A stretch of 64,000 nt of DNA from an uncultured Anaerolineaceae bacterium (GTDB lineage: Bacteria > Chloroflexota > Anaerolineae > Anaerolineales > Villigracilaceae), in assembly GCA_964549865.1 (NCBI GenBank), contig CAZJYB010000002.1:512-64511 (forward strand), written 5' to 3'. Positions 2,370 to 61,678 of the stretch are shown here, in pieces. The notes beneath the pieces were generated by a model, which was not told the DNA's origin, did not search any database, and saw only the letters and a program-made list of their open reading frames with translations. Position 1 is the first letter of the stretch; the number at the start of each line of letters is the position of its first letter. The position numbers and the translations under genes are program-made.

Positions 2370-5014
<2,645 letters not shown>

Positions 5015-5038
5015 GATTGCATCCTCCATCGGAAATCT

Positions 5039-7842: not shown

Positions 7843-7850
7843 GTGTCGGT

Positions 7851-10711: not shown

Positions 10712-10715
10712 GATC

Positions 10716-12397: not shown

Positions 12398-12439
12398 CAG
12401 GAAATTGCTTCCATGCGAGAATTCAGAAAATGAATTCTC
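12394..12439 (+). promoter_or_regulatory. Type-A promoter/operator module, copy 2, upstream of wzm/wzt set 1
   Basis: It has the same TTGACAG, the same 13-nt spacing and the same 26-nt TGCGAGAATTCAGAAAATGAATTCTC as 9251-9296. Confidence 0.6.
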
Positions 12440-12451
12440 GATCTTGTTGTT

Positions 12452-13324
12452 GTGAAGGATGTTATGGAAATACAATCGTCTGATCAAGAAAATTGGTCTC
12501 TCGTAATTCGCCCGCAACGCGCCTGGTGGGATTTACGTGTGGGTGAATTGTGGCGGTATCGGGACCTGATCTGGTTATTTGTATGGCGTGATTTTGTTGC
12601 TTATTACAAACAGACCATTCTCGGCCCGCTGTGGTACATCATCCAACCAGTGCTGACGACTGTTGTATTTACGATTATCTTCGGAAATATTGCCAAACTT
12701 TCCACCGATGGGTTGCCTCCCTTTTTGTTTTATATGGCCGGAAATATCGTTTGGAGTTATTTTAGCACCTGCCTAGTTACCACGTCTAATACATTCACAG
12801 CTAATGCTGGGATATTTGGAAAGGTATATTTTCCGCGCTTGAGTATGCCTGTTTCTGTGGTGATCTCCAATTTGATCTCGTTTTTCATCCGTCTTGCTAT
12901 ATTTTTGCTCTTCATAGGTTACTTTATATTGACAGGTGCAGACTTTCATCTCACTTGGTGGATTTTAAGCCTGCCACTTCTGGTGGTTATCATGGCCATG
13001 ATGGGGCTCGGGTTCGGTATGATCATTTCCTCGCTTACAACCAAATATCGTGATCTCCAGCAATTGGTGAGCTTCGGTGTTCAACTCCTGATGTATGCCA
13101 CGCCGGTGATTTATCCGCTTTCAAGTATCGAAGGTAGCTGGCGCTGGCTGATTCTGGCAAACCCGATGACTCCCATTGTGGAGGTCTTTCGCTTGGCCTT
13201 TTTTGGGGTAAGCGCGATCGACCCTGTTTCTTTGCTTTATAGCGCCATTTTTACAGTGGTTGTTTTTTTGGCAGGTGCATTGATCTTCAATCACGTTGAA
13301 ACCACCTTTATGGATACGGTTTAA
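12452..13324 (+). CDS. wzm: ABC-2 type polysaccharide exporter permease
   Basis: It has YKQTILGPLWYIIQP and six TM helices, and sits adjacent to the ATPase. The start (GTG 12452 or ATG 12464) is uncertain. Confidence 0.88.
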   Translation: MKDVMEIQSSDQENWSLVIRPQRAWWDLRVGELWRYRDLIWLFVWRDFVAYYKQTILGPLWYIIQPVLTTVVFTIIFGNIAKLSTDGLPPFLFYMAGNIVWSYFSTCLVTTSNTFTANAGIFGKVYFPRLSMPVSVVISNLISFFIRLAIFLLFIGYFILTGADFHLTWWILSLPLLVVIMAMMGLGFGMIISSLTTKYRDLQQLVSFGVQLLMYATPVIYPLSSIEGSWRWLILANPMTPIVEVFRLAFFGVSAIDPVSLLYSAIFTVVVFLAGALIFNHVETTFMDTV

Positions 13325-13328
13325 TAAG

Positions 13329-15641: not shown

Positions 15642-16691
15642 GTGACCAGAGAACTGAAAATCAACAATTTCAACATTTCCGACACGAGTGCCTGTTTTGT
15701 GATCGCTGAGATCGGGCATAATCATCAGGGCAATGTACAAAAGGCTAGGGAATTATTCAAGGCTGCAGCCGAATGTGGCGTCAACGCGGTCAAATTGCAA
15801 AAACGCGACAATAAGGCTTTGTTCACGAAAGCTGCTTACGACAAGCCGTATGAGAATGAGAACAGTTTCGGCCCCACCTACGGTGCACATCGCGAGGCGC
15901 TCGAGTTTGGGCGTACAGAATTCATGGAATTACAAAAGTATGCCAAAGAACTTGGCCTGATCATGTTTTCCACCGCATTCGATATTTCCAGCGCCGATTT
16001 CCTTGCTGAGTTGGATATGCCTGCTTACAAGATCGCATCAGGCGATATCAAAAACACGCCGTTGCTTAAACACGTGGCCAAATTCAGCAAACCCATGATC
16101 ATCAGTACGGGCGGCGCAGATATGGTGGATGTTCAACGCGCGTACGACGTGATTATGCCCCTCAATCAACAGTTGGCGATCTTGCAGTGCACTTCCTCAT
16201 ACCCTGCAGAGCACAAAGATCTAAACCTGCGGGTCATTGAGACCTTTCGCAGGCAATTCAAGGATACGGTTATCGGTCTTTCCGATCACGAGAATGGTAT
16301 TGCTATGGCGGTGGCAGCATATGTCTTGGGTGCGCGTATCATTGAACAACACTTTACGATCAATCATACATGGAAGGGTACGGACCAGGTTTTTTCGCTT
16401 GAACCGATTGGCATGAAAAAACTTGTGCGTGATCTTCGCCACCTTCATGATGCGCTGGGCGATGGCGTCAAGAAGGTATATCCCAATGAAGTAGCGCCGA
16501 TCACAAAAATGAGCAAAAAACTGGTTGCAGCTGGCAGCTTACCGGCAGGCCATAAATTGACCGCCGGCGACCTGGCCGTTAAATCTCCCGGCGATGGTCT
16601 GCATCCTTATGAAATTGATAATGTCATCGGCAAGAGTCTTAAACGAGCACTGATTGAAGACGACGACATCAAGTTCGAGGATCTTGCATGA
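15642..16691 (+). CDS. Ulosonic acid synthase of the NANS type (Neu5Ac-9-P / KDN-9-P synthase-like) with a C-terminal SAF domain
   Basis: It has IAEIGHNHQG. KALFTKAAYDKPYENENSFGPTYGAHREALEF aligns with the NANS-specific segment (..ERPYTSKHSWGKTYGEHKRHLEF). LQCTSSYPAEHKDLNLRVI and HTWKGTDQVFSLEP are also present. Confidence 0.8.
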   Translation: MTRELKINNFNISDTSACFVIAEIGHNHQGNVQKARELFKAAAECGVNAVKLQKRDNKALFTKAAYDKPYENENSFGPTYGAHREALEFGRTEFMELQKYAKELGLIMFSTAFDISSADFLAELDMPAYKIASGDIKNTPLLKHVAKFSKPMIISTGGADMVDVQRAYDVIMPLNQQLAILQCTSSYPAEHKDLNLRVIETFRRQFKDTVIGLSDHENGIAMAVAAYVLGARIIEQHFTINHTWKGTDQVFSLEPIGMKKLVRDLRHLHDALGDGVKKVYPNEVAPITKMSKKLVAAGSLPAGHKLTAGDLAVKSPGDGLHPYEIDNVIGKSLKRALIEDDDIKFEDLA

Positions 16692-18148
16692 TCCCGCAAC
16701 AGATACCAAATTGGATTGCCGGCGAAGAACGTCTCGCGTTATCCAATGAATGGTTTGACAAGCTTAACCCGGCAGATGGAAAACTTCTGACGAAAGCGGC
16801 CCGTTCGCGCGTAGCGGATATCAATGCTTCCGTTGAAACAGCCAAACGTGCATTTCCAGCATGGTCTGAGACGCCTGGGGTGCAGCGAGGACTTATATTG
16901 CACAAGCTTGTTGTAGGGATGCAAAACCATCAGGATGAGATCGCGCATATTGTGGCCGCGGAAACTGGAAAATCCCATAAAGACGCGTTGGGTGAAACTG
17001 GGGCGGCCATTCAGTGTGGTTTATTCTATGCCAGCGAAGGGCAGCGTTTATACGGTCATACCATGACATCCGGTACCGCAAATAAATATGCCATGACGAT
17101 CCGCCAGCCAATCGGGATTGCCGGTCTGATCATTGCCGCGAACACCCCCATCGCGAATGTGGCCTGGAAGGTCTTTCCTGCGCTTGTGTGTGGCAATACT
17201 GCGATATTGAAAGCTTCTGAAGATACGCCTGCCACTGCGTGGATTGTGGGAAAGATTGCCAGGGAAGTCGGTTTGCCCGATGGCGTTTTGAACATTGTGC
17301 ATGGCTTCGGCGAAGAGGCTGGGGCGCCTTTGGTTGGGCATCCGGCGGTAGGGGTTCTTTCATTCACGGGTTCTACAGGGGTGGGACGCATCATCCAGCG
17401 CACTGCGGGCGAAAGGTTTGCACGCGTTTCACTGGAACTTGGTGGTAAGAACGCCTTTGTGGTCTGTGATGATGCCGATCTTGAGAATGCGGCAAAGTGG
17501 GTTTTACTTTCTGCGTTCAGCAATGCCGGCCAGCGTTGTGCCTCTGCCAGCCGTATCATTGTCTTTGATACGGTATATGATAAATTTCGCGATATGCTTG
17601 TGGAAAAGACAGGAAAACTTCGCCTGGGTACTGCAGATGAAGATGACTTCGGACCTGTGATCAACGAAGATCAACTTAACGGCATGGTTTCCGTTTTGGA
17701 GCGCACCCGTAAAAGCGGGGCAAATATTCTTGCTGGTGGAGAGCGTTTGATGGATGCCCTGCATCGCAACGGCTATTACATGGCTCCGACCCTGATGGAT
17801 GGTGTTCAGCCGCATGATGAGATTTCGGAATGTGAACTGTTTGGTCCGGTTGCGATCTTATATCGTGTGAAGGACTTTGAAGAAGCGCTTGCTCTTGCAA
17901 ATGATTCGCCGTATGGGTTGACTGCCAGCATACATACACGCAGTTTACACCGCGCCATGCGGTTTGTGGATAAGGTCCAAACTGGAGTCGCTGTTGTAAA
18001 CGCCGGCACACACGGTTCCGAACCGCATATGCCATTTGGCGGGCGTAAACAATCGGGCAATGGCTCTCGCGAGCCCGGTACAGAGGCGTTAAACATTTAT
18101 TCCGAGTTGAAGGATGTTTACGTCAACATTGACCCCTCCCAGCTATGA
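16688..18148 (+). CDS. NAD(P)-dependent aldehyde dehydrogenase
   Basis: It has the ELGGKNAFVV and NAGQRCASASR catalytic motifs. An ATGA overlap joins it to the upstream gene. Confidence 0.85.
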   Translation: MIPQQIPNWIAGEERLALSNEWFDKLNPADGKLLTKAARSRVADINASVETAKRAFPAWSETPGVQRGLILHKLVVGMQNHQDEIAHIVAAETGKSHKDALGETGAAIQCGLFYASEGQRLYGHTMTSGTANKYAMTIRQPIGIAGLIIAANTPIANVAWKVFPALVCGNTAILKASEDTPATAWIVGKIAREVGLPDGVLNIVHGFGEEAGAPLVGHPAVGVLSFTGSTGVGRIIQRTAGERFARVSLELGGKNAFVVCDDADLENAAKWVLLSAFSNAGQRCASASRIIVFDTVYDKFRDMLVEKTGKLRLGTADEDDFGPVINEDQLNGMVSVLERTRKSGANILAGGERLMDALHRNGYYMAPTLMDGVQPHDEISECELFGPVAILYRVKDFEEALALANDSPYGLTASIHTRSLHRAMRFVDKVQTGVAVVNAGTHGSEPHMPFGGRKQSGNGSREPGTEALNIYSELKDVYVNIDPSQL

Positions 18149-18894
18149 ACAGTAAATCGCCTTCCATAGTTGCTTTAATACCGGCTCGTTCAGGCTCCAA
18201 ACGCGTGGTGGACAAGAATATTCGTCCGCTGGCTGGGCATCCTGCAATCGCTTACACCATCTCGGCAGCCGTGCAGAGCAATATATTTTCTGCAGTGATC
18301 GTCTCCACAGACTCTGAAGAATATGCAAAAGTATCGCGCGAATATGGAGCAGAAGTGCCCTTCCTGCGGCCCGATGGAATGGCGGGTGATATTTCGCCTG
18401 ATATTGAATGGCTCGATTTCACGCTGACCAAACTCAGGGAAATGGGACGCGAATATGAGTGCTTTGCCCTGCTACGCCCCACCAGCCCATTTCGTTTGCC
18501 TGAGACCATTCAACGGGCGTGGAAGGCATTTCTTGCAGAAGACGGTGTCGACTCGCTGAGGGCTGTGGAAAAATGTCATGAGCATCCCGGCAAAATGTGG
18601 GTCTTGCGCGGCAATCGCATGACACCGTTGCTGCCCTTTTCCGGAGATCACGCCTGGCACAGTACGCCCTATCAGGCATTGCCCGAGATCTATATACAAA
18701 ATGCAAGCCTTGAAATCGCATGGTCGCGCGTTGTGCTGGATGATCACACAATTGCCGGAAATGTCATCATGCCATTCCTTACCAGGGATTATGAGGGTTT
18801 TGACCTGAATCATCCGTATGATTGGAATTTGGCTGAAGAGTTTGTAAAGGCCGGCCAGGCCAGGTTGCCAGAGATCGGCATGAAAGATAAATAG
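18145..18894 (+). CDS. Acylneuraminate/ulosonate cytidylyltransferase (CMP-sugar synthetase family)
   Basis: It has the N-terminal motif ALIPARSGSKRVVDKNIRPLAG, plus LRPTSPFR. An ATGA overlap joins it to the ALDH gene. Confidence 0.82.
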   Translation: MNSKSPSIVALIPARSGSKRVVDKNIRPLAGHPAIAYTISAAVQSNIFSAVIVSTDSEEYAKVSREYGAEVPFLRPDGMAGDISPDIEWLDFTLTKLREMGREYECFALLRPTSPFRLPETIQRAWKAFLAEDGVDSLRAVEKCHEHPGKMWVLRGNRMTPLLPFSGDHAWHSTPYQALPEIYIQNASLEIAWSRVVLDDHTIAGNVIMPFLTRDYEGFDLNHPYDWNLAEEFVKAGQARLPEIGMKDK

Positions 18895-18920
18895 CTTTTG
18901 TTGTTAATAAAAAGGAAACC

Positions 18921-20903
18921 ATGGTAGATATAAAGCTCATTCCATTTGAAGAATTTAAGCGAATACGTGAATCTCAAATTGACAGGTATCAGAAGCTTGC
19001 CATCATTGCAGATATGAATCGCGCCAATACCCTGGCTGAGGTCAAACGCGCGGGCTCCGGCCATCTTGGCTCATCGTTCAGCGCGATGGATCTTGTCACC
19101 TGGCTGTATCATGAGGAAATGAACGTCCTCAAAGTCGGCTTTAGCAGCCCGGACCGCGATATTTATTTCTCGTCCAAGGGTCATGATGTCCCGGGCCTGT
19201 ATGCCACCATGTATTCTCTGGGTGTATTATCGGAGGAGAAACTTCTCAAATTACGCCGGCTGGGCGGCCTCGACGGTCATCCCGATCTTAACATTCCCGG
19301 TATAGAGGCAAATTCCGGTTCGTTGGGAATGGGCATCTCAAAAGGGCGCGGCATGGCCTGGGCCAAGAAACACTTTGGGCATGATGGGCAGGTATATGTC
19401 CTGACCGGAGACGGGGAGTGGCAGGAGGGCCAGAACTACGAAGCGCTTCACTCCACAGTTCAGCAAAAGATCGATAATCTGACTGTCATTGTGGATGACA
19501 ACAAGGTGCAATCCGACAAGCTGGTGAATGAGATAACGAGTCTTGGCGACATCGAAACCAAATATCGTGCCTTTGGCTGGCATGTTATTCGTGTCGACGG
19601 GCATGACTATCGACAAATTGAAAAGGCGTTTGCCGAAGCGCGCCACATTAGAGGGAAGCCGAAGATCATACTTGCAGATACGATCAAGGGGCGCGGGATA
19701 TCTTTCATGGAACACCCTGTTGCACTTGAAACAGGCCACGGGCTTTATCCATGGCATTCCGGCGCACCGGACGACGCGTCGTTTGACGCAGGCTATAACG
19801 AGCTGATCGAACGGGTTGATCGCCTCCTGTTAAGCTTTGGCCTGACGCGCTTGCAATTTAAAGACGTTGCGCCCGAGGAACATCGTCCAAGCGCGGCTGT
19901 GTTGGCCGGTGAACCGCTTAGTCAGGCCGCACAGGAAAAGATCTCTGCAAAGGTAACAGATGAATATGTTGCGCGCGCATATGGGCAGGCCCTTGTAGAG
20001 ATTGCCGCCCGGCGAAAGGATATTGTGGTGTTGGATGCCGATCTTTCTTCGGATTGTAAAGTGCGCGATTTTGAAAATGCCTACCCTGAGCGATTTATCG
20101 AAAATGGTATTGCCGAGCAGGATATGGTTTCAATGGCTGGAGGGCTGGCGAGCCAGGGTTTATTGCCTGTGGTGAATTCCTTTGCCAGTTTCCTAGCCTC
20201 ACGTGCCAATGAGCAGATCTATAACAACGCCAGTGAGAAGACAAAGATCATCTACGCTTTGCATTATGCCGGGTTGATCCCGGCCGGGCCGGGCAAATCC
20301 CACCAATCCCTGCGCGATATTTCACTCTTTGCGGCCCTGCCGAATTGCACGATCCTGCAGCCTTGCAATGCCGATGAAACCAAAATGGTCGTGGAATATG
20401 GTGTGGAAGAAGCGAAAGAAAATGTGGCGATGCGATTTATCATTGGTCCTTCCCCGCGCAAGATCCAATTGCCAAAAGGCTATAAGCTCACATTTGGCAA
20501 AGGTGTGGCTCTTGCCGAGGGCCGCGATGCGATCATGTTTGCGTACGGGCCGGTGATGCTGCACGAGGCTTTGCTTGCAAACGAACTATTGGCCGAACGA
20601 GGCCTTGGCCTGAAAGTTATCAATCTCCCCTGGCTCAATCGTGTGGATGCCACATGGCTCGAAGAGATGATTGATCCGTATGAACTGGTCTTTGTCTTGG
20701 AGGATCATCATCCTGCCGGCGCGTTAACAGACCACATACTTGAATTACTGGCTTCTGGCAATAATCAACTGCTGGCCAAACGGCGCCTGGTCCGTTTCGC
20801 GGTGGAAGGCTGGCCGGCTTGTGGCACGCCTGCGCAAGCCCTGGCCCATCACCAACTGGATGCAGTATCCCTGGCAAAAAGGGTCATGAAATATTGTGAT
20901 TAG
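18921..20903 (+). CDS. Transketolase, single-chain (N- and C-terminal halves fused)
   Basis: Motifs seen are GHLGSSFSAMDL, the ThDP motif GDGEWQEGQNYEAL, the pyrimidine-binding half (IAEQDMVSMAGGLA) and a C-terminal domain. Confidence 0.85.
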   Translation: MVDIKLIPFEEFKRIRESQIDRYQKLAIIADMNRANTLAEVKRAGSGHLGSSFSAMDLVTWLYHEEMNVLKVGFSSPDRDIYFSSKGHDVPGLYATMYSLGVLSEEKLLKLRRLGGLDGHPDLNIPGIEANSGSLGMGISKGRGMAWAKKHFGHDGQVYVLTGDGEWQEGQNYEALHSTVQQKIDNLTVIVDDNKVQSDKLVNEITSLGDIETKYRAFGWHVIRVDGHDYRQIEKAFAEARHIRGKPKIILADTIKGRGISFMEHPVALETGHGLYPWHSGAPDDASFDAGYNELIERVDRLLLSFGLTRLQFKDVAPEEHRPSAAVLAGEPLSQAAQEKISAKVTDEYVARAYGQALVEIAARRKDIVVLDADLSSDCKVRDFENAYPERFIENGIAEQDMVSMAGGLASQGLLPVVNSFASFLASRANEQIYNNASEKTKIIYALHYAGLIPAGPGKSHQSLRDISLFAALPNCTILQPCNADETKMVVEYGVEEAKENVAMRFIIGPSPRKIQLPKGYKLTFGKGVALAEGRDAIMFAYGPVMLHEALLANELLAERGLGLKVINLPWLNRVDATWLEEMIDPYELVFVLEDHHPAGALTDHILELLASGNNQLLAKRRLVRFAVEGWPACGTPAQALAHHQLDAVSLAKRVMKYCD

Positions 20904-20905
20904 AT

Positions 20906-22315
20906 ATGAGTGATGAAAAGGTAGGCATCCCTTTGCACGGAAAGATGGCCGCCCGCGCGTTGCATTCGGCCTCTTTTCGCGAGTGTTTGGGTGCGAATGG
21001 TTTGAAACCGGTCTATTTTCTTAGCCCCCATTATTTCCGTTCCTTCGATTTCGACCCCAACCAGTATTTTGAGCTTCGAATAGAAGATTATGATCAGTAT
21101 TTCCGGAAGCATGCCTTATTGCAGAATTTAAAAATGCTCAGGCGCTTTGTCGTTCGGACGGAAACAACGGATCTTCGTTTTCGTGAAATGATAGCAAGCA
21201 AACTCTTCAATGCCTCCATCTGGGGTATTGGCGCATCCCTTTTCTACATCGATATCGTACGCCGTATCCCTAATATTGGGAATCTACTCTTGTGGCTCGA
21301 GACCACTTTTTATGCGACCCATGCTCATGATCGATCCTTCGAGGAACAGGGAATCGACTGTGTTTTGACCCCAGGCATGGGGAATTTCAACTTTTGGAAC
21401 GAAGGCAATTTTGCCCTTGAGGCGCAAAGATCGAACATCCCGGCTTTTGCAGCGATAACGAATTATGACAATATTGTGAACATGGGATTTCGCGGTTTTA
21501 CCCCGACCTGTCTTGCTGTCTGGAGTCGGCAAATGGCGGATGAGGCCATCAAATTGCACGGTTTGCCAGCCCGTAAAATTGAAATTACTGGCCCGGTGCA
21601 ATATGACAGGTTCATGCAGCCTTTACCTCTGGATCGTGATGCCTTTCTAAGATCGATTGGTCTTGACCCCAACCGCAAGACGATCTTTTATGCGGGTGGA
21701 GTCAATATCACCCGTTATTTTGAGATATACCGTTTATTTGTTGAACAGAAAGAAAGTATTTCGTCCGAACCCTTTAATCTAATTGTACGACCAATGCCGC
21801 ATATTAAATTATTAGGCTCCCCAGGCTGGCAGGTCCTGGAGAAGCTGTTTCCTGGAGCCGGAGTGTATATCTCGAATCCCGGTTCCATCGATGCAAGTGG
21901 TGATCGTACCGATGAATTTCGCCTTGATCTTTCCTTTGAAGAAGGCACTGATGAATTAAGTTATTTGTTGCGTTACAGTGACGTGTTGATCAATAGTTTT
22001 TCAACGATGAGTCTCGAAGCTGCCATTTGTGATTTGCCGGCCATCCATTTTGGATATGATTCTTACACATTTGGACACAACTTTAATACAACATCGGCTT
22101 TTCAACAGCGCATGACCCATAACCGCAGAAAGCTGCGCCTGCAGGCATCAAAAGTGGCCAAAAACGAATCGGAACTGGTGATGTTTGTCGATCAATACTT
22201 GAACGATCGCACCCTGGACCAGGGAGCTCGACACGAGTATGCAGTTTCGGAATGCGGTGAACTCGACGGGCAGGCAGGCATTCGCCTGATGGAAATGATC
22301 AAAAGCAGGCTGTAA
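20906..22315 (+). CDS. Unassigned GT-B-like protein, candidate transferase for the CMP-activated sugar
   Basis: It starts 2 nt after the transketolase gene. It shows a generic GT-B pattern (KIEITGPVQYDRF ... KTIFYAGG ... SDVLINSFSTMSLEAAICDLPAI). I did not recognise a family. Confidence 0.3.
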   Translation: MSDEKVGIPLHGKMAARALHSASFRECLGANGLKPVYFLSPHYFRSFDFDPNQYFELRIEDYDQYFRKHALLQNLKMLRRFVVRTETTDLRFREMIASKLFNASIWGIGASLFYIDIVRRIPNIGNLLLWLETTFYATHAHDRSFEEQGIDCVLTPGMGNFNFWNEGNFALEAQRSNIPAFAAITNYDNIVNMGFRGFTPTCLAVWSRQMADEAIKLHGLPARKIEITGPVQYDRFMQPLPLDRDAFLRSIGLDPNRKTIFYAGGVNITRYFEIYRLFVEQKESISSEPFNLIVRPMPHIKLLGSPGWQVLEKLFPGAGVYISNPGSIDASGDRTDEFRLDLSFEEGTDELSYLLRYSDVLINSFSTMSLEAAICDLPAIHFGYDSYTFGHNFNTTSAFQQRMTHNRRKLRLQASKVAKNESELVMFVDQYLNDRTLDQGARHEYAVSECGELDGQAGIRLMEMIKSRL

Positions 22316-22355: not shown

Positions 22356-23111
22356 ATGAAAACACTTTACCCCTGGCTTAACCCTATTTTGATGCGAATA
22401 TTGCGCTGGCTCTATGCTATCTGGCGGAAGATCAACATTCGCCAGACTAATCCACGATTATGGTCGAACGATGAACTGGCAAAATTTGCGCCGCTTTTTT
22501 CTGGAAAGGTCATCAATGTTTCCGGAGGAAGGGATAACGATAAGGAGGGCAGGTCATATAAGGATTATTTTGTTAATGCGGAGTCGTATACTTTGTCGAA
22601 CTATATTCTTGAATTCAAGGATTCAAATGCCTATAACGAGATGCAATTGGATCTCTCCGGACCATTATTAATTGATTCCAACCTAGCCGGGAAGTTTGAA
22701 ACGGTCCTGACGCACACTGTCCTGGAGCATATTTATGATGTGCACCAGGCCGTCGAAAACCTGTGTAAATTGTCGAACGATATTGTGATCACCATCATAC
22801 CTTTTCTGCAGGAATTTCATCATGTGCCTGAGCAATATCATGACTATTGGCGTATTTCACCATATTCACTGGCTTTGTTATTCAAGCAACATGGCTTTCA
22901 GACCCTTTACGTGAACTGGAATGATGACCCCATGGGTAACGTATATATTTTTCATATTGCTTCGCGCCAACCTGAAAGATGGGATGATCAAATACGACCT
23001 GCTGTTATTACCCATGGACCTGGATCTTCACGGGTCTTGATACACCCGGAGCAGGATGGTTCGATGGGTAGTACTGCTGTTGCCTTTCGCGATCTTTATA
23101 TACTGGAGTGA
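22356..23111 (+). CDS. Class I SAM-dependent methyltransferase-like
   Basis: It has VINVSGG and VLTHTVLEHIYDVHQAVENL (the Methyltransf_11-like post-motif region). Confidence 0.55.
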   Translation: MKTLYPWLNPILMRILRWLYAIWRKINIRQTNPRLWSNDELAKFAPLFSGKVINVSGGRDNDKEGRSYKDYFVNAESYTLSNYILEFKDSNAYNEMQLDLSGPLLIDSNLAGKFETVLTHTVLEHIYDVHQAVENLCKLSNDIVITIIPFLQEFHHVPEQYHDYWRISPYSLALLFKQHGFQTLYVNWNDDPMGNVYIFHIASRQPERWDDQIRPAVITHGPGSSRVLIHPEQDGSMGSTAVAFRDLYILE

Positions 23112-54324: not shown

Positions 54325-54373
54325 TTGACCTTGCCTCGAATGGGGTTATAATTCAGTGACTGAATTTTGGATT
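54325..54373 (+). promoter_or_regulatory. Type-B promoter/operator: TTGACC-N16-TATAATTCAGTGACTGAATTTTGGATT
   Basis: It has near-consensus -35 and -10 hexamers. The palindrome AATTCAG-N3-CTGAATT starts inside the -10. The module is duplicated at 4015-4041. Confidence 0.6.
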
Positions 54374-54382
54374 GTAAAGTAT

Positions 54383-54853
54383 ATGGAATCAACCAACGAC
54401 GAGATCCGCGAACTCTCCCTGCTTGAACAGATCGAGAACGACCCGAATGTCAACCAGTCCACGCTTGCCACCCAACTGGGTGTTGCGGTTGGAACGGTCA
54501 ATTGGCATTTAAAACGTCTCATTGCCAAAGGCGCTGTAAAGGTTTCGCGCGCTGAGCGCAAGAAATTGCGTTACATCATCACGCCCGAGGGACTTGCCCT
54601 GCGTGCCCGTCTGGCAATCGATTACGTGGAACGTTCATTCTCTGTATATCGACGAACACGCCAGCGCGTGAAGGATCATGTTTCTTCGATTCGCCGCGCA
54701 GGATACGATCGTGTGCGCATCGTTGGCTCCGGCGATGTGGCTGATATTTGCAAACTGACATGTCTTGAACAGGGTATTTCCGTGGTGAACGATAAATCTG
54801 CGCCCGCATTAATTTTGGATGGCTACAAAGTACGGCTGGAGGGTTTGGAATGA
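54383..54853 (+). CDS. Winged-helix (MarR-like) transcriptional regulator, paralog 2
   Basis: NQSTLATQLGVAVGTVNWHLKRLIAKGAVKVSRAERKKLRYIITPEG is colinear with the regulator at 9287. I preferred ATG 54383 to GTG 54356, which lies inside the operator. Confidence 0.7.
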   Translation: MESTNDEIRELSLLEQIENDPNVNQSTLATQLGVAVGTVNWHLKRLIAKGAVKVSRAERKKLRYIITPEGLALRARLAIDYVERSFSVYRRTRQRVKDHVSSIRRAGYDRVRIVGSGDVADICKLTCLEQGISVVNDKSAPALILDGYKVRLEGLE

Positions 54854-55860
54854 CCGATCGCCATGTGCTCATTACGGGAGGCGCAGGATATATCGGTTCC
54901 ATCCTGACCTCGGAACTGCTGCGCGCCAATTACAGGGTTACCGTCCTGGACTCTTTACTGTTCGGCGGCGAAGCGATCGTTCCGTTTTTGCATCACCCCA
55001 ACTTTCACTTTGTGAAAGCGGATGTGACTGAAAATCGCGCAGTGCGTGACTCGATCAAGCGCGATTGGCAGAAACCTGACTCAGTTGTTCATCTTGCCGC
55101 GATTGTGGGTTTTCCTGCATGTCAGGCGGTGGGCAGGCAGGTGTCGTGGAAATACAATGTCGACGCCACGAAAATGGTTTTCGAACAAGCATTGGATCTG
55201 GGCATCGCGCGATTCGTTTTTGCATCCACTTATAGCAACTATGGGCTGTCGCCGGATGGCAAACCTGTGACGGAAGAATCTGCATTAAATCCGCAATCCC
55301 TGTATGCCGAGACCAAGATCGCGGCGGAGGAGTTCTTGAGCTCACAAAAGGACTCGGTCTGCGCGCCGTTGCTGTTCCGTTTTGCGACCCTGTATGGAAT
55401 TTCCCCGCGTACCCGTTTTGACCTGATCGTCAATCAATTTGTGTTGGAGGCATTCACCAAACGCGAATTGATCATTTACCAGCGCGGCTATTCACGTTCA
55501 TTCGTACATATTCGTGACGTGGTACGCGGCGTGATGATGGGTCTCGAAGCCGAACGCGAAAAGGTGTGCGGGCAGATTTTCAATCTGGGAACTGAGAACG
55601 GAAATTATTCGAAGGACGATATCGTGCAATTGGTGCTTAAACGCATGCCGGAGACAGTCGTTGAATACAAGGATCTGACTTTCGGGGGCGATATGCGCGA
55701 TATTACGGTTTCGTTCGAGAAAATCAAGCGTGTACTTGGTTTTGATGCGACCCTGACCGTGGATGACGGCGTGCGCGAGGTTTTACACGCCTTAAAGACG
55801 GGTTTGATAAGAAACCCAACGGATGACAGATACAGGAATGCACAATTCATCGTGCAATAG
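54850..55860 (+). CDS. NAD-dependent NDP-sugar epimerase/dehydratase (SDR)
   Basis: Motifs seen are VLITGGAGYIGS and YAETKIAAEE. Confidence 0.7.
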   Translation: MTDRHVLITGGAGYIGSILTSELLRANYRVTVLDSLLFGGEAIVPFLHHPNFHFVKADVTENRAVRDSIKRDWQKPDSVVHLAAIVGFPACQAVGRQVSWKYNVDATKMVFEQALDLGIARFVFASTYSNYGLSPDGKPVTEESALNPQSLYAETKIAAEEFLSSQKDSVCAPLLFRFATLYGISPRTRFDLIVNQFVLEAFTKRELIIYQRGYSRSFVHIRDVVRGVMMGLEAEREKVCGQIFNLGTENGNYSKDDIVQLVLKRMPETVVEYKDLTFGGDMRDITVSFEKIKRVLGFDATLTVDDGVREVLHALKTGLIRNPTDDRYRNAQFIVQ

Positions 55861-55875
55861 GTTGCAAGTTACCGA

Positions 55876-55890
55876 GTTGAAGGTTGAAGG
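55876..55890 (+). repeat. Left arm of the inverted repeat bracketing four-helix-bundle gene 1
   Basis: GTTGAAGGTTGAA is the exact complement of 56343-56355. Confidence 0.6.
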
Positions 55891-55899
55891 AGTATATGA

Positions 55900-56313
55900 A
55901 TGACGACTGCAAAGCGGTTTGAGGAATTGGAAGTTTGGCAAAGAGCCAAAGATCTGACAAACCTGGTTTATAAATTTTCCACAGATGGGTCGTTTGCGCG
56001 TGATTTCGGTTTGCGCGACCAAATCAGACGCGCGTCTGTTTCGATTATGTCCAATATAGCCGAAGGATTTGAGAGTCAAACTCAGGCTGTGTTTATTAAG
56101 TACCTCGCGTATGCCAAAGGTTCTGCGGGTGAGTTGCGGGCTCAACTTTATATTGTCAGGGATCAAGGCTACATAACTGATGAAGAATTTGATCAAGCAT
56201 TTTCCGCAGCGGAAATTTGCAGCAAGCAATTATCACGTTTTATTCATTATTTGGAATCCCAACCCAACGCGCGGCGGGTCCGCGAAGAAGAAGTAGCGTA
56301 CAATGTCGAATAG
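55900..56313 (+). CDS. Four-helix-bundle protein (23S rRNA intervening-sequence protein / Avd-like family)
   Basis: Motifs seen are [48 protein letters not shown]. Confidence 0.8.
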
Positions 56314-57316
56314 CCAACCTTCCAACTTTCAACCTTCTGACTTTCAACCTTCAACCTTTTGGCAGAACAAACGTGTGATCGTTACGGGGGGAGGAGGTTT
56401 CCTCGGCTCCTTTGTTGTTGAAGAACTTAAGCAGCGCGGCGCGACCGATATTTTCATCCCGCGCAAAAAGGATTATGACCTGACCGATCACAACGCAATT
56501 GATCGTTTCTATAATGATGCGTTGAAAGGTGTCGAGCCCGGGCATACGATCGTGATTCATCTGGCCGCCAATGTGGGCGGCATCGGCGCCAACCGTGAAC
56601 ACCCCGCTGAATTTTTCTACGATAACCTGGTGATGGGCGTGGAATTGATGCACCAGGCCTGGAAGCGCGGTGTCGGCAAATTCGTTGCCACCGGAACGGT
56701 GTGTGCGTATCCCAAATTCACCCCGGTTCCGTTCAAGGAAGATGACCTGTGGATCGGCTATCCTGAAGAGACCAATGCTCCCTATGGCCTCGCCAAAAAA
56801 ATGATGCTGGTGCAGGCGCAGTCTTATCGCCAGCAATATGGATTCAATTCCATTTTCCTTTTGCCTGTAAATCTATATGGCCCTGGCGATAATTTCAATC
56901 TGCAAACCTCGCATGTGATCCCGGCCTTGATCCGCAAGGCGGTCGAAGCGGGTGAGCGCGGTGATCAGGAACTGCAAGTGTGGGGGGATGGCTCTCCAAC
57001 CCGCGAATTCCTGTATGTGGAAGATGCTGCAGATGGCATTGTCACTGCTGCTGAAAAATATGACGGCGATCAGCCTGTCAATCTTGGTTCCGGTTATGAG
57101 ATCTCGATCAAGGATTTGAGCGAAATCATTGTGAAAATGACCGGTTTTCAGGGAAAGCTTGCATGGCAGACCGATAAACCGAACGGCCAGCCACGCCGAG
57201 GGCTGGACGTCACCCGTGCAAAGGAATTATTCAATTGGCGTGCGCGAGTTACCTTTGAAGAAGGCATGCGTCGCACGATCGAATGGTTTAAAGCCAATCG
57301 TGAAAAAATTAAATAG
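56303..57316 (+). CDS. fcl: GDP-L-fucose synthase (GDP-4-keto-6-deoxymannose 3,5-epimerase/4-reductase)
   Basis: Motifs seen are [45 protein letters not shown] and [12 protein letters not shown]. The true start may lie downstream of the repeat-encoded first ~20 codons. Confidence 0.88.
56314..56356 (+). repeat. Right arm: reiterated CAACCTT/CAACTTT heptamers, also read as the fcl N-terminal codons
   Basis: The sequence is CCAACCTTCCAACTTTCAACCTTCTGACTTTCAACCTTCAACC, and 13 nt are complementary to the left arm. Confidence 0.6.
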
Positions 57317-57319
57317 CCT

Positions 57320-57373
57320 GGATCGCGGACTTCAGTCCGCAATTCATATATAGCGGACTGAAGTCCGCGATCC
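57320..57373. repeat. Perfect 21-bp inverted repeat with a 12-nt loop (GGATCGCGGACTTCAGTCCGC-N12-GCGGACTGAAGTCCGCGATCC)
   Basis: I read it directly from the sequence. Each arm holds a nested mini-palindrome (GCGGACT-TC-AGTCCGC). It ends 7 nt before the wzm2 ATG, and a second copy lies at 61681-61731. Confidence 0.85.
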
Positions 57374-57380
57374 GAGAAAA

Positions 57381-58226
57381 ATGACTGAAATTGTAAAACA
57401 CGAACCCACCACGGTTTACATCAAGCCATCCAAAGGTCTTGCAGCATTAAACCTGCATGACCTGTGGGTTTACCGTGAATTGATCTTCTTCATGGTCTGG
57501 CGTGATATAAAAGTCAAATATAAACAAACTCTTTTGGGCATGGCCTGGGCGGTTATTCAACCGTTGATGACCATGTTGGTGTTCACCTTCCTGTTTGATC
57601 GGGTTGCAAAACTACCGACGGAAGGGATCCCTTATCCTGTTTTTTCTTTTACTGCATTGTTGCCGTGGGGCCTGTTTGTCGTGGCGCTTAATCAGGGGAG
57701 TCGCTCGCTTGTGGCGCATAACAATATGGTGACCAAGATCTACTTCCCGCGCTTGATCCTGCCCATGTCATCGGTCTTTGCCGGGCTGGTTGATTTTGCG
57801 ATCGCCTTCGTCATTCTGGTTATTCTGATGTTTTACTATCAAGTCACCCCTGCATGGAATTTACTGTGGACTCTTCCGCTGTTTCTATTATTGGCAATTA
57901 TCACCGCGCTTGGCGTGGCGCTCTGGCTTTCAGCGATCAATGTACAATATCGCGACGTAAACCAGGCCCTCCCGTTTCTGACCCAGTTCTGGCTGTTTGC
58001 CACACCTGTTGCATATTCCGCCACTGTCATCTCTGAAAAATGGCAGGTTTTATATTTTCTGAATCCGATGGCCGGAGTGGTCAATGGATTTCGCTGGTCT
58101 TTGCTCGGCATTGGCAATGGACCGGATATTACACTCTGGGTTTCAACCGGTATTTCGATATTGATTTTCATCTCTGGCCTTTTCTACTTTCGCAGCATGG
58201 AAAAGACCTTTGCGGATACTATATAA
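57381..58226 (+). CDS. wzm: ABC-2 type polysaccharide exporter permease, set 2
   Basis: It has YKQTLLGMAWAVIQP and six TM helices, and is paralogous to 12452-13324. Confidence 0.88.
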   Translation: MTEIVKHEPTTVYIKPSKGLAALNLHDLWVYRELIFFMVWRDIKVKYKQTLLGMAWAVIQPLMTMLVFTFLFDRVAKLPTEGIPYPVFSFTALLPWGLFVVALNQGSRSLVAHNNMVTKIYFPRLILPMSSVFAGLVDFAIAFVILVILMFYYQVTPAWNLLWTLPLFLLLAIITALGVALWLSAINVQYRDVNQALPFLTQFWLFATPVAYSATVISEKWQVLYFLNPMAGVVNGFRWSLLGIGNGPDITLWVSTGISILIFISGLFYFRSMEKTFADTI

Positions 58227-58227
58227 A

Positions 58228-58263
58228 GTGTCAGGTTTCAGGTGCCATGTATCAGGTCATCTG
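58228..58263 (+). repeat. Left arm of the inverted repeat bracketing four-helix-bundle gene 2 (reiterated CAGGT units)
   Basis: GTGTCAGG and TTTCAGGTG pair with CCTGACAC (58662-58669) and CACCTGAAA (58646-58654). Confidence 0.6.
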
Positions 58264-58277
58264 AAAAGTAGATTATC

Positions 58278-58640
58278 ATGGCGATGATTCAACGATTTGA
58301 AGATATTCAAGCCTGGCAGGAAGCAAGGATATTAGTGAAAATGATTTATCAATTAACAAATAAAGATAAATTTTCGAAGGACTTTGGAATGAGAGATCAG
58401 ATTAGGCGTGCCTCCGTTTCTGTGATGAACAATGTTGCAGAAGGTTTTGATTGTGAATCTAAGGCTGAGTTTGCTCGTTTTCTTGGAATTGCAAGGCGTT
58501 CGGCTGTAGAAGTCCAATCCCTTCTATATGCGGCAATGGATGTAGGTTATGTTGATCAAACTGAATTTGACTTGCATTATGAACAAGCACGTAAGGCAAA
58601 AGCCCTTATCGGCGGCTTCAAACGTTCCCTCACCAAGTAA
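58278..58640 (+). CDS. Four-helix-bundle protein (23S rRNA intervening-sequence protein / Avd-like family), second copy
   Basis: Motifs seen are [30 protein letters not shown] and FLGIARRSAVEVQSLLY. Confidence 0.8.
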   Translation: MAMIQRFEDIQAWQEARILVKMIYQLTNKDKFSKDFGMRDQIRRASVSVMNNVAEGFDCESKAEFARFLGIARRSAVEVQSLLYAAMDVGYVDQTEFDLHYEQARKAKALIGGFKRSLTK

Positions 58641-58669
58641 CCTGACACCTGAAACGTGATACCTGACAC
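58641..58669 (+). repeat. Right arm of the inverted repeat bracketing four-helix-bundle gene 2
   Basis: CCTGACACCTGAAACGTGATACCTGACAC ends 6 nt before the wzt2 ATG. Confidence 0.6.
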
Positions 58670-58675
58670 ATACTT

Positions 58676-59965
58676 ATGACAACAGCGATTTCAGTAAAAA
58701 ACATTGGCAAACAATACAAGATTGGCGCGGCTGAGTCGAAATTCCGCTACAACATGCTCCGCGATGTGATCGTGGATACCGTTTCTGCACCAATTCGTCT
58801 GGCGAAAGCGATGGTGGGAAGGTCTGACCGCAGACAGAACCAGAACTACGTCTGGGCATTGAAGGATGTTTCCTTTGATCTGGAAGAAGGGAAGGTCCTT
58901 GGCATTGTTGGGCGTAATGGCGCGGGGAAAAGTACCCTGCTCAAGATCCTTTCTCGTGTTACCGAGCCAACGGTCGGCATGGTTTCTGTACGTGGGCGTG
59001 TCGGCTCGCTCCTCGAAGTAGGTACCGGCTTTCACCCCGAACTCACTGGCCGTGAAAATATTTATATGAACGGCGCGATCCTGGGCATGAAGCGTGCTGA
59101 GATCGATTCCAAATTTGATGAGATCGTTGACTTTTCTGAGGTTACTCAATTCATTGATACACCGGTCAAGCGCTATTCATCAGGCATGTATCTGCGCCTG
59201 GCTTTCGCGGTTGCCGCGCATCTCGAACCTGAGATCCTTGTAGTTGACGAAGTGCTTGCGGTGGGCGACGCGGAATTCCAGCGCAAGTGTCTTGGCAAAA
59301 TGGGGGACGTGGCGCAGCAGGGCCGCACGGTCTTGTTCGTCAGCCATAACATGTCCGCGATCCTGAGATTAACGCAAGAAGCCATCGTCTTGAACAAGGG
59401 TCAATTGCTGATGCGCGGCCCCACCCAGGAGGCTGTCGATTTTTATCTCTCATCGGGGCAGGCACAAGCCGGGGAGCGCGCCTGGGATGTTGATGAAATC
59501 CCGGCATCCAGTGCTCCATTCAGGCCGATCAGTTTGAGGGTCAAGGACAGAAGCGGAAAGGTCGTGGATACTGTCCGCTCCACGGAGCCACTCAACGTCG
59601 AATTTGAATATCAACTGGATGCACCCATTACCGGGCTGCGCATCGGTTTTTATCTCAGCACCATGCGCGGCGAATATGTGCTGACCTCATTTGATACCGA
59701 TGAGCCGCAGATGTTCGATCAATTTGATTCACGCAAATCCGGTCGTTATGTCAGTCGTTGCGTGATCCCGGCGGATATCTTCAACGAGGGACGGTATGGC
59801 CTGGGTGTGAACGCCAGTTCGTTTGGCGTGCGTCGTTATTTCATGGATGAGAATGCTTTGGCATTCAATGTGGATATTTCGGGCGCGCCAGGTACGCAAT
59901 GGCCCGAGCCGCGTGTGGGCCCGGTACGCCCGCGCCTTGAATGGAAGATCGAGAAACTGGATTAA
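58676..59965 (+). CDS. wzt: ABC polysaccharide exporter ATPase with a divergent C-terminal binding-type domain, set 2
   Basis: It has GRNGAGKST, YSSGM and ILVVDE. The N-terminal ~250 aa are close to 13329-14636, while the C-terminal domain is much more divergent. Confidence 0.88.
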   Translation: MTTAISVKNIGKQYKIGAAESKFRYNMLRDVIVDTVSAPIRLAKAMVGRSDRRQNQNYVWALKDVSFDLEEGKVLGIVGRNGAGKSTLLKILSRVTEPTVGMVSVRGRVGSLLEVGTGFHPELTGRENIYMNGAILGMKRAEIDSKFDEIVDFSEVTQFIDTPVKRYSSGMYLRLAFAVAAHLEPEILVVDEVLAVGDAEFQRKCLGKMGDVAQQGRTVLFVSHNMSAILRLTQEAIVLNKGQLLMRGPTQEAVDFYLSSGQAQAGERAWDVDEIPASSAPFRPISLRVKDRSGKVVDTVRSTEPLNVEFEYQLDAPITGLRIGFYLSTMRGEYVLTSFDTDEPQMFDQFDSRKSGRYVSRCVIPADIFNEGRYGLGVNASSFGVRRYFMDENALAFNVDISGAPGTQWPEPRVGPVRPRLEWKIEKLD

Positions 59966-59971
59966 AAAATT

Positions 59972-60035
59972 AACCGCGAAGAGCGCAAAGAATTCTAAAA
60001 GCTTTTCTTGGCGACCTTGGCGTGCTTTGCGGTTC
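59972..60035 (+). repeat. REP/MITE-like element, copy 2
   Basis: AACCGCGAAGAGCGCAAAGAATTC..CTTTTCTTGGCGACCTTGGCGTGCTTTGCGGTTC has complementary termini (AACCGCGAAG / CTTTGCGGTT) and matches 361-433 on the opposite strand. Confidence 0.6.
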
Positions 60036-60043
60036 AAAAAAAC

Positions 60044-61678
60044 ATGGCTACAAAATCAACTCTCAAAAATTTCCTGGGCGATCTGCCCTTTACTGCTGAA
60101 ATCGATTGGATGCTTCGGCAGAAGAACCACGCCCGCAAGGATCATTTCAATCTCGATCGTTTGGGTGGATCCCTGCCCGAGGCGCGCGCAGCGGTTGAAC
60201 CTTTTGCGCGCAATGCAAAACCAGGAAAAAATGTTTTGTTCTTTGCCACGCTGCATTACTGGATCGAGCAATCTGCTTATTTGGGTCTGGCCCTCGCCGG
60301 CCTTGGGCATAAAGTCACTTTGCTGACCTTGCCCTATGCCGAATGGCACAAGCAGAAGGATAATTTCACACAACGGCAACGCGTGCTTCACACACGGGAT
60401 GTACTTTCATCTTTATCGCCCTTGATCGAACACGCTTCCATGCTGGACCCTTCGACACGGCTTCGCCAGTCAGGACGGCGCCTCAAGCCTGCTTCCGTTC
60501 TCCCGGAGAAGATCCTGGCTGACATACAGGAGATCTCACTGTGGGACGCGCAATATACCCTGATGCGCGAAGAAGTGGATATGAACGATCCCGAAGAGCG
60601 CGCCTTATATGACCTGCGCGTTCAGCGAAACACATTTGCCGCTGGTGCCGCGCTTGAATGGATGCGATCGAAGAAGCCCGATGTCCTGCTGGTTCCCAAC
60701 GGGTTGATCCTCGAAATGGGCATTGTTTTTCGCGTGGCCCGTTATTTGGACATCCCCGCGGTGACGTATGAATTCAACGACCAGCGCGAGCAGATCTGGC
60801 TGGCGCAGAATTCGTCGATCATGCAGCAGGATACGGATTATATTGTTGAGGCGCGCTGTCATTTGCCGATGACCGATGAAATGTTCGAACGCGTGGCCGA
60901 TCTTGAAAATGCGCGTCGCGGTGCGCGTGTCTGGGGAAAGTCCAAGCGCTTATGGCAATATGTCTCTGCGCAGGGAGCCGATGAAACCCATAAGATGCTT
61001 GGTCTGGATGATCGCCCTGTTGTGATGCTTGCCGCGAACGTGCTGGGCGATAGTCTCACGCTGGGACGGGATATCTTCGCGGGGTCGATGACTGAATGGA
61101 TCACAAAAACTGTTCAGTTTTTTGCGAACAGGCCGGATGTCCAGATGGTGATCCGTGTACATCCCGGCGAGACGCTTGTACCGCAGGCGAAATCCATGGG
61201 GCAGGTGGTGCGTGAGGCGCTGCCGGTCCTGCCCGATCATATACACGTCATTGGCGCGGCGGACAAGGTCAATACATATGACCTGATCGAGATCGCCGAC
61301 CTGGGGCTGGCCTACACAACAACGGTCGGGCTTGAGACTGCAATGAACAGCCGTCCCGTGATCTCGTGTGGTGAGACACATTATCGCGGCCGCGGCTTCA
61401 CACTTGACCCGAATTCGTGGGACGAGTATTACGCCATACTCGAAAAGGTATTGAGCGATCTGCCCGCGCATCGTTTGAATGAAAAGCAGACCGAATTTGC
61501 ATGGAACTACGCCTATCGTTTCTTCTTTGAATATCCGTGTCCTTTCCCATGGAGGTTAATGAATTTCTGGGACGATCTGGAAACATGGCCATTGGAAAAG
61601 GTATTGAGCGAAGAAGGGCAGGCGCAATTTAAAGATACGTTTGATTTTCTGGTTGGAAAACCTTTTACGTGGAAATGA
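60044..61678 (+). CDS. Capsule_synth (KpsC/KpsS)-like GT-B protein with an HP motif; candidate ulosonic-acid transferase
   Basis: It has VVMLAANVLGDSLTL followed by MVIRVHPGE (HP motif) and AYTTTVGLETAMNSRPVI. This assignment is from motif memory only. Confidence 0.4.
   Translation: MATKSTLKNFLGDLPFTAEIDWMLRQKNHARKDHFNLDRLGGSLPEARAAVEPFARNAKPGKNVLFFATLHYWIEQSAYLGLALAGLGHKVTLLTLPYAEWHKQKDNFTQRQRVLHTRDVLSSLSPLIEHASMLDPSTRLRQSGRRLKPASVLPEKILADIQEISLWDAQYTLMREEVDMNDPEERALYDLRVQRNTFAAGAALEWMRSKKPDVLLVPNGLILEMGIVFRVARYLDIPAVTYEFNDQREQIWLAQNSSIMQQDTDYIVEARCHLPMTDEMFERVADLENARRGARVWGKSKRLWQYVSAQGADETHKMLGLDDRPVVMLAANVLGDSLTLGRDIFAGSMTEWITKTVQFFANRPDVQMVIRVHPGETLVPQAKSMGQVVREALPVLPDHIHVIGAADKVNTYDLIEIADLGLAYTTTVGLETAMNSRPVISCGETHYRGRGFTLDPNSWDEYYAILEKVLSDLPAHRLNEKQTEFAWNYAYRFFFEYPCPFPWRLMNFWDDLETWPLEKVLSEEGQAQFKDTFDFLVGKPFTWK

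Follow-up and report, generated by a model that had tools for sequence, protein, structure and literature searches.

The described systems that come closest to the one analysed here are the autorepressors of the MarR family (MarR/marO, MexR, HcaR, PcaV, SlyA and FabT) and the Fur, PerR and Zur proteins of Bacillus subtilis, the latter being paralogues that recognize 7-1-7 boxes differing from one another at one or two positions. The present analysis concerns a stretch of 64,000 nucleotides from an uncultured Anaerolineaceae bacterium (GenBank assembly GCA_964549865.1, contig CAZJYB010000002.1, positions 512 to 64,511; hereafter 'the window'), in which two paralogous regulator genes, here termed Reg1 and Reg2, are each preceded by a palindrome that is fused to a promoter. 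A second copy of the Reg1-associated palindrome ('type A') stands before the exporter gene wzm1, and a second copy of the Reg2-associated palindrome ('type B') stands before gmd. We consider it likely, from the arrangement and conservation of these sequences, that Reg1 and Reg2 are autorepressors, each of which would control its own operon and one partner operon of a glycan locus.

Reg2 resembles the MarR autorepressors in having a winged helix-turn-helix domain with a beta-hairpin wing, and in both systems the regulator gene is the first of the operon that it apparently controls and the palindrome overlaps that operon's own predicted -10 element and transcription start. The differences lie mainly in architecture and in targets: the predicted structure of Reg2 lacks the N-terminal dimerisation helix and ends in a helix of ~38 residues followed by an alpha/beta module that carries the motif D-x3-LTC-x-E, Reg1 scores under the Pfam MarR cut-off, and the putative targets of both proteins are genes of glycan synthesis and export, not of efflux or aromatic catabolism. 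The likeness to Fur, PerR and Zur consists of a common inverted-repeat core, a small number of specificity positions, and separate regulons that include the regulator's own gene. In contrast to that system, the sites of Reg1 and Reg2 differ outside the arms, namely at their outer flanks and a central A-tract, and their regulons would be tiny, comprising approximately two operons each within a single locus.

An initial annotation of this DNA had described a promoter of the form TTGACC-N16-TATAAT fused to the palindrome AATTCAG-TGA-CTGAATT ahead of an ATG at position 54383, and had reported that a 27-mer containing part of this arrangement recurs with a single mismatch; it had further proposed that both operator types reduce to the same core, AATTCA-N5-TGAATT. 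All of these elements were found where that annotation had placed them (Table 1). The start codon of Reg2 is additionally backed by alignment with orthologues of 156 residues, and the predicted transcription start, at approximately 54359, coincides with the centre of the palindrome. The 27-mer, TATAATTCAG(Y)GACTGAATTTTGGATT, occurs in the window only at 54347-54373 and 4015-4041, with one difference between the two copies, where none is expected and no shuffled sequence produced a match; the type B consensus in the window is TATAATTCAG-N3-CTGAATTTTG, found before Reg2 (54383) and gmd (4052). The shared core was likewise confirmed, being present exactly four times (at 4018, 9277, 12420 and 54350) against an expectation of 0.03, a number that none of 100 shuffles reached, and in all four cases it is fused to a -10 hexamer. 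A search for additional sites with two mismatches returned 11 matches in the window against 7.5 expected, which corresponds to chance level and contributes no credible additions.

The two type A sites of the window are built alike, each consisting of TTGACA, 14 nucleotides, TGc, GAGAAT and the common palindrome GAGAATTCAGAAAATGAATTCTC, and therefore combine a consensus -35 element with an extended -10 element. At the gmd type B site no recognisable -35 element was seen on inspection of the window sequence. The -10 hexamer at that site contains the TAA stop codon of an upstream open reading frame (ORF, 2370-4019), and the -35 hexamer of the second type A site contains the TGA stop codon of the DegT gene. 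The operon junctions of this locus are packed very tightly.

Table 1. Positions of promoter-operators, regulator genes and operons in the window
Feature	Coordinates	Strand	Details
Reg2 promoter, -35 TTGACC	54325-54330	+	Consensus scan; 16-nucleotide spacer
Reg2 promoter, -10 TATAAT	54347-54352	+	Promoter matches 11 of 12 positions of the sigma-70 consensus
Type B block of Reg2, TATAATTCAGTGACTGAATTTTGGATT	54347-54373	+	-10 hexamer plus palindrome
Reg2 palindrome, AATTCAG-TGA-CTGAATT	54350-54366	+	Overlaps -10 hexamer; ATG 54383 downstream
Type B block of gmd	4015-4041	+	TATAAT 4015-4020; palindrome 4018-4034; predicted start ~4027
Reg1 type A promoter-operator	9251-9296	+	-35 TTGACA 9251-9256; extended -10 TGc 9271-9273; -10 GAGAAT 9274-9279
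Reg1 type A palindrome, GAGAATTCAGAAAATGAATTCTC	9274-9296	+	Predicted start ~9286, adjoining ATG 9287
Second type A promoter-operator, before wzm1	12394-12439	+	-35 TTGACA 12394-12399; GAGAAT 12417-12422; palindrome 12417-12439; predicted start ~12429
Reg2	54383-54853	+	156-residue winged-helix regulator; long helix and small alpha/beta C-terminal module
Operon downstream of Reg2	54850-61678	+	Pfam and NCBIfam
Genes of the Reg2 operon (start positions)			SDR (short-chain dehydrogenase/reductase) epimerase 54850; four-helix-bundle gene 55900; fcl-like GDP-sugar synthase 56303; Wzm2 57381; four-helix-bundle gene 58278; Wzt2 58676; capsule-synthesis-like protein 60008
gmd operon	4052-8984	+	gmd (GDP-mannose 4,6-dehydratase, 4052-5014), then PMT_2 membrane glycosyltransferase, GT2, GT4; Pfam
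Reg1 and its operon	9287-12397	+	Reg1 9287-9769 (160 residues), GFO/IDH/MocA oxidoreductase, hexapeptide acetyltransferase, DegT aminotransferase; Pfam/NCBIfam
Wzm1 and Wzt1, ABC-2 polysaccharide exporter	12464-14636	+	Pfam ABC2_membrane, ABC_tran, Wzt_C

The association of type A with Reg1 was examined in a set of 80 loci (denoted, like all loci below, by the prefix L) that were collected by scanning metagenomes at the protein level with a Reg1 alignment, and that were thus selected by protein alone. A type A site was found upstream of 77 of the 77 distinct Reg1 genes chosen in this way. The 86 distinct type A contexts correspond to TTGACA-N14-TG(T/C)-GAGAATTCA(G/A)AAA(C>A)TGAAT(G/T)CTC, in which the left flank is GAG in 80 and the right flank CTC in 83 of the 86, and in which the centre is an A-tract, except for L177 and L210, where it is inverted to TTT. 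The right arm, located on the transcribed side downstream of the predicted start, is conserved as well as the left arm; conservation at a position where no promoter element is expected argues for a site that is bound by a dimeric protein. Type A sites were also found before wzm genes (in L131, L144, L148, L156, L159, L164 and L207) and before a GFO gene (in L191).

The window's own form of the palindrome, AAAATGAATT, occurs in a minority of genomes; it puts an ATG at the predicted transcription start, approximately 7 nucleotides past the -10 hexamer, an arrangement that predicts a leaderless Reg1 mRNA and, likewise, a leaderless wzm mRNA in L131. This minority form, AAAATGAA, in which the ATG is included, was observed in the window (9286-9289) and in L131, L132, L152, L156, L167, L168, L191 and L207, while the majority of the relatives display AAACTGAA, with a start codon 6-9 nucleotides past the palindrome and a very short leader that is devoid of a Shine-Dalgarno sequence. 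Within the second type A palindrome of the window, an ATG at 12430 opens a 17-codon ORF, MNSRSCCCEGCYGNTIV (12430-12483), that is out of frame with wzm1, the start of which (12464) was assigned from its translation and from an AAGGA Shine-Dalgarno sequence. In L131 the equivalent of this ATG serves as the wzm start codon, and the window therefore seems to have gained a leader of ~30 nucleotides together with a new, Shine-Dalgarno-led start at 12464.

For type B, one genome per species was scanned with the pattern KAKAATTCAGNNNMTGAATTYT, which returned at least 120 loci; the scan required perfect arms, and the arms and palindrome positions in the resulting set, being fixed by the pattern, are not independent evidence of arm conservation. 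Among the matches listed, to which the following counts refer, at least 81 type B sites are situated directly upstream of a Reg2 orthologue (at least 50) or of gmd (at least 31), and all but one of these 81 loci are named as Chloroflexota, Anaerolineae or Anaerolineales. The distance from site to start codon is 14-36 nucleotides at Reg2 (n = 50) and 30-122 nucleotides, with a median of 32, at gmd (n = 31). The pattern has four degenerate positions and permits 16 combinations at them, of which the same one (T, T, C, T) was present in 80 of the 81 assigned sites; the other 40 matches scatter over unrelated phyla and 13 base combinations, and fit the approximately 70 chance matches calculated for the pattern. 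The central triplet differs among the 81 sites (TCA, TGA, CGA, CCA, CGG and others), and AAA does not occur. A pyrimidine opens it in 80 of them and a purine closes it in 74; this last position is the seventh after the hexamer, where a purine would be expected if transcription began there. The DNA flanking the type B block is not conserved, and the block itself is kept before Reg2 orthologues.

Since the arms were imposed by the scan, loci that had been picked without reference to the site were also tested, and a type B site was present in all eight of them: five with Reg2 (L002 and L005, at 89% identity, and L211, L212 and L213, which encode Reg2-like proteins at 54-58% identity) and three with gmd (L008, L009 and L192, taken from the Reg1-selected loci). 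The upstream neighbourhood of the Reg2 sites varies, with a transposase in L005 and co-directional genes in L211-L213. On single contigs of three other genomes, gmd and Reg2 type B sites are paired 48-72 kb apart, in the same layout as in the window. Among the matches listed (L011-L130), no Chloroflexota type A site was observed and no Reg1 was present in the motif-selected loci, an indication that, among species representatives, Reg1 is less common than Reg2.

Three matches of the type B scan deserve separate mention. In L042 (at 7570) and L069 (reverse strand, at 3322), both from Anaerolinea/Anaerolineales, a type-B-like sequence, cTATAATTCAGACGCTGAATTTT, stands before neither Reg2 nor gmd. 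The gene after it in L069 encodes a 559-residue membrane protein with a DDAMISMRYA motif and no homologue in the window, and may be a further member of the regulon in that lineage. The third, L102 (at 3853), was binned as Bacteroidota and contains a typical type B site with a Reg2 orthologue at 72% identity; it is probably a mis-binned Anaerolineales contig.

Comparison of the two collections of sites indicates which features actually separate the types. Most type A sites, including the Reg1 site of L008, read AATTCA(G/A)AAACTGAAT and thus follow the 7-N3-7 frame of type B sites; with a C before TGAAT in most of them, the frame AATTCAG-N3-CTGAAT is common to both types, and the N5 spacer is not a general discriminator. 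A discrimination by spacer alone (gaaaa versus gcgac) was ruled out on this basis. The differences that remain stable are the outer flanks, which are GAG/CTC in type A and TAT/TTT(G) in type B, and the central triplet, which is AAA in the former and pyrimidine-N-purine in the latter.

The regulators themselves are related over their whole length (37% identity over 139 residues, E = 5e-34), so that the paralogy that had been noted for their helix-turn-helix regions is not limited to them. Reg2 scores 29.6 bits and Reg1 17.2 bits against the Pfam MarR family (PF01047; gathering cut-off 24.6), and both score 41 bits against Pfam HTH_24 (cut-off 21.9). The best NCBIfam match of both, over residues ~9-105, is TIGR04176, a model of a MarR family regulator associated with extracellular polysaccharide (EPS) loci, at 48.7 bits for Reg1 and 63.8 bits for Reg2. 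The association with such loci is a point of likeness, both regulators being encoded in a glycan locus together with gmd, an fcl-like gene, NeuB, DegT, glycosyltransferases and two Wzm/Wzt exporters; the two proteins nonetheless fall under the 88-bit cut-off of the model, the 105 positions of which do not include the C-terminal module. A literature search on the TIGR04176 family itself found no paper in searchable full text, and a search for the regulator or its motif (TIGR04176, EPS-associated MarR, Villigracilis, and Chloroflexi regulons or palindromes) found no description of either. An exhaustive search defined a family of 759 representative clusters at E <= 1e-10. Reg2 orthologues at 87-95% identity make up more than 120 clusters (from Anaerolineales or Chloroflexi, where named), and Reg1 orthologues show 70-80% identity; one protein, P0121, from a 66-kb NCBI contig, is 100% identical to Reg1.

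An AlphaFold2 (AF2) model of Reg2, with a predicted local distance difference test (pLDDT) score of 92.5, contains a three-helix winged helix-turn-helix (helices 2-19, 25-32 and 36-48), a beta wing (strands 52-56 and 62-66), the helix of ~38 residues and the small alpha/beta module. The top 50 Foldseek matches of this model are mainly MarR proteins (among them 3k0l, 4rgu, 4fht, 6jbx, 1lnw and 1lj9), with ~80 of 156 residues superposed at a template modelling (TM) score of 0.43. A sequence search of solved structures returned only marginal matches, at E >= 0.015, to MarR (4gxo and 3hrm) and Lrp (2qz8 and 2ia0) proteins. Residues 14-104 of Reg2 align with MarR residues 42-133, and because such alignments begin at approximately MarR residue 42, Reg2 appears, in its predicted monomeric form, to be without the MarR N-terminal dimerisation helix. 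The Lrp/AsnC regulators (HTH_24 plus RAM) were also considered, as they share with Reg1 and Reg2 a length of ~155-160 residues, an N-terminal HTH_24 match and the weak matches to 2qz8 and 2ia0. The resemblance ends there: neither protein has a RAM/AsnC_trans_reg Pfam match at E <= 0.01, the top fold matches are to MarR, and the topology of the Reg2 model differs, in that it has a beta wing and a long helix, and its C-terminal module is a beta-alpha unit followed by strands in place of beta-alpha-beta-beta-alpha-beta. Judged by sequence, the two proteins would function in the manner of MarR-type autorepressors, but outside the MarR dimerisation architecture and below curated score cut-offs (that of Pfam MarR for Reg1, and that of TIGR04176 for both).

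Conservation across three orthologue groups is strongest in two places: the recognition helix, AVG(T/S)VNW(H/Y)(L/I)KRL, is nearly invariant, and the C-terminal motif D-x3-LTC-x-E is fully invariant (its cysteine being C127 in Reg2). The positions of the recognition helix that consistently separate Reg1 from Reg2 are T38S, H42Y and L43I; further separating positions comprise residues 74-77 and most of the wing (SRAERKKLRYII versus SHLDRTRLKYDL), which forms the main cluster. The C-terminal module is undescribed. When modelled alone (residues 103-156) by single-sequence AF2 it reached a pLDDT of only 63.5, and Pfam scans of longer relatives (190-285 residues) revealed no shared C-terminal domain.

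In the mechanism that we propose, each regulator would bind as a dimer, most simply a homodimer, to an inverted repeat with AATTCAG / CTGAATT as the common core of its arms. From centre to centre the arms are 11 base pairs apart, corresponding to one helical turn, and the repeat extends from inside the -10 hexamer to approximately +10. The predicted start is its midpoint, so that RNA polymerase would be blocked by a bound dimer, and autorepression by occlusion is likely. Reg2 would act through type B sites (TATAATTCAG-YNR-CTGAATTTTG) on its own operon, which encodes the SDR epimerase, the fcl-like synthase and Wzm2/Wzt2, and on gmd approximately 50 kb away, and would thereby tie the initial reaction of GDP-6-deoxyhexose synthesis to the subsequent ones and to export. 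Gmd makes GDP-4-keto-6-deoxymannose, a product that SDR and fcl-like enzymes would consume, and gmd is thus a biochemically sensible partner for an operon that contains both such enzymes and an exporter. Reg1 would act through type A sites (TTGACA-N14-TGn-GAGAATTCA-RAAAC-TGAAT(G/T)CTC) on its own diacetamido-sugar operon and on the adjacent wzm1/wzt1. We infer the assignment of each protein to its site type from an autoregulatory linkage that persists across 54-95% identity, and repression from the position of the sites. Because the differences between Reg1 and Reg2 cluster in the wing, we suggest that discrimination would occur via wing contacts to the outer flanks, along with the shape of the minor groove at the central A-tract. 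A response to a ligand through the C-terminal module is speculative.

Several observations weigh against this interpretation. The strength of the gmd promoter is uncertain, as no -35 element is recognisable there, and among 106 type B contexts only 38 contain a -35 element that departs from TTGACA by at most one base. The requirement for perfect arms in the type B scan would have missed weaker members of the regulon. Only ~8 of the 26 wzm genes in Reg1 loci possess a type A site of their own. Furthermore, in three metagenome contigs (L176 at 3781, L178 at 2993 and L209 at 1125) a gmd with 81-85% identity to that of the window is situated behind a type A site, directly after the Reg1 operon or gene, from which it seems that promoter-operator cassettes are exchangeable between target genes. 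The wiring that had been proposed at the outset is supported by the comparison of genomes, in that type B appears to track Reg2 and gmd, and type A to track Reg1 and wzm, but it is not fixed.

The most serious alternative is that the two paralogues cross-bind: both regulators, or heterodimers of them, would occupy both site types with different affinities and form a hierarchical or mutually dependent circuit. We hold this to be possible, although not probable. The near-identity of the recognition helices makes cross-binding plausible and strict discrimination no more than putative, which must also be counted against our interpretation, and the arms and the 7-N3-7 frame are common to both site types, either of which may be found before gmd. 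Set against this is the stability of the type-specific flanks and centres (GAG in 80 of 86 and CTC in 83 of 86 with the A-tract, versus TAT/TTT in 80 of 81 and never AAA), which would be hard to explain if the distinction between types did not matter; in addition, no GAG-type site was seen at any Reg2 gene among the matches listed, even though the scan pattern permitted it. As proteins are assigned to sites by autoregulatory logic, another, unlinked transcription factor might bind the palindromes, and Reg1 and Reg2 might be mere targets of it. That is quite improbable, given that each site type tracks its own regulator (77 of 77 Reg1 genes and ~55 Reg2 genes) across 54-95% identity and through changed upstream neighbours, and that a pair of diverged site types set against a pair of diverged paralogues is what cognate pairs would be expected to produce.

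Other explanations retain the sites but alter their role. Some MarR/SlyA-type proteins are activators or counter-silencers, and the regulators could bind and yet activate, or act in both directions; the gmd promoter, with no -35 element, might need such help. This we regard as improbable, because a site extending from the -10 element to ~+10 is incompatible with known activation geometries, and because type A promoters, with a consensus -35 element, an extended -10 TGn and a -10 hexamer, should be strong unaided. The conserved block might instead represent a promoter, an initial-transcribed or RNA element (such as an attenuator or a 5' hairpin), or a conserved leaderless start in the case of type A. 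If fully transcribed, the type A palindromes would fold with free energies of -11.3 and -13.5 kcal/mol (z = -5.6 and -4.5), a further point against our own interpretation; the gmd site is located at the end of an upstream ORF, so that read-through RNA would include both arms; and the ATG in the palindrome ~7 nucleotides after the -10 element, in the window and a few relatives, is where wzm of L131 starts. The left arm, however, would not be transcribed from these promoters, since their predicted start is the palindrome centre; the arms are invariant, with no compensatory changes, while the centre varies; the type B hairpins (-4.4 and -6.9 kcal/mol, z = -0.8 and -1.5) are no better than those of shuffles; and most type A sites contain CTG, not ATG, at the position in question, with the start codon further downstream. 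No Rfam family matched at its gathering threshold anywhere in the window; on these grounds, together with the non-significant type B hairpin, an RNA element was discarded as the principal explanation, the whole class being highly improbable. A secondary RNA role at type A sites is possible if they are transcribed from upstream.

The genes that surround the two regulators were annotated with Pfam and NCBIfam. The region between the Reg1 and Reg2 operons encodes NeuB, a cytidylyltransferase, methyltransferases and glycosyltransferases, a content that identifies the window as one large surface-glycan locus of ~60 kb, bounded on its two sides by gmd and Reg2. The ORFs of Reg2 and the epimerase share a 4-nucleotide overlap, and the gene order of their operon is kept in relatives with 54-89% regulator identity; the gmd and Reg1 operons are syntenic in L006, L008 and L009, and the genes of the Reg1 operon are consistent with a diacetamido-sugar pathway.

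Additional features of the locus were also recorded. The genes at 15642-20903 encode a NeuB-like synthase, an aldehyde dehydrogenase, a CMP-sugar-type cytidylyltransferase and a transketolase-like protein, which suggests a nonulosonic-acid or related keto-sugar branch beside the GDP-6-deoxyhexose and diacetamido-sugar branches. Two four-helix-bundle genes, at 55900-56313 before the fcl-like gene and at 58278-58640 before wzt2, match Pfam 23S_rRNA_IVP and TIGR02436; as the orthologous operons of L002 and L211-L213 are without them, the window copies look recently inserted. No Pfam or NCBIfam match was found for the ORFs 2370-4019 (549 residues), 20906-22315 (469 residues) and 22356-23111 (251 residues), the first of which precedes gmd and is found in synteny in L008 and L009.

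To our knowledge, almost nothing has been established regarding transcriptional control in Anaerolineales. According to passages in two papers, these are abundant, mostly uncultured filamentous bacteria of activated sludge, anaerobic digesters and sediments, the surface polymers of which are thought to aid the structure of flocs and granules (PMC6753630, PMC9942424). The style of control described here is itself familiar in bacteria and introduces no new regulatory principle. Its interest lies in a putative two-operon regulon that is conserved in more than 100 genomes, and in a compact natural case of paralogues that use a common core half-site and are apparently separated by flank and centre, which is useful for the study of how operator specificity evolves. 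With two short operators, two small proteins and sigma-70-like promoters, the hypothesis is testable in a heterologous host. A more far-reaching and rather doubtful extension is that Reg1 and Reg2 are a specificity-diverged pair of an uncharacterised family, in which the C-terminal module senses nucleotide-sugar intermediates and creates two insulated feedback channels. If that were true, the insulation would be achieved solely by wing-to-flank contacts and A-tract shape readout around an identical core half-site, and feedback branches for GDP-6-deoxyhexose and UDP-diacetamido-sugar would set the composition of one surface heteropolysaccharide.

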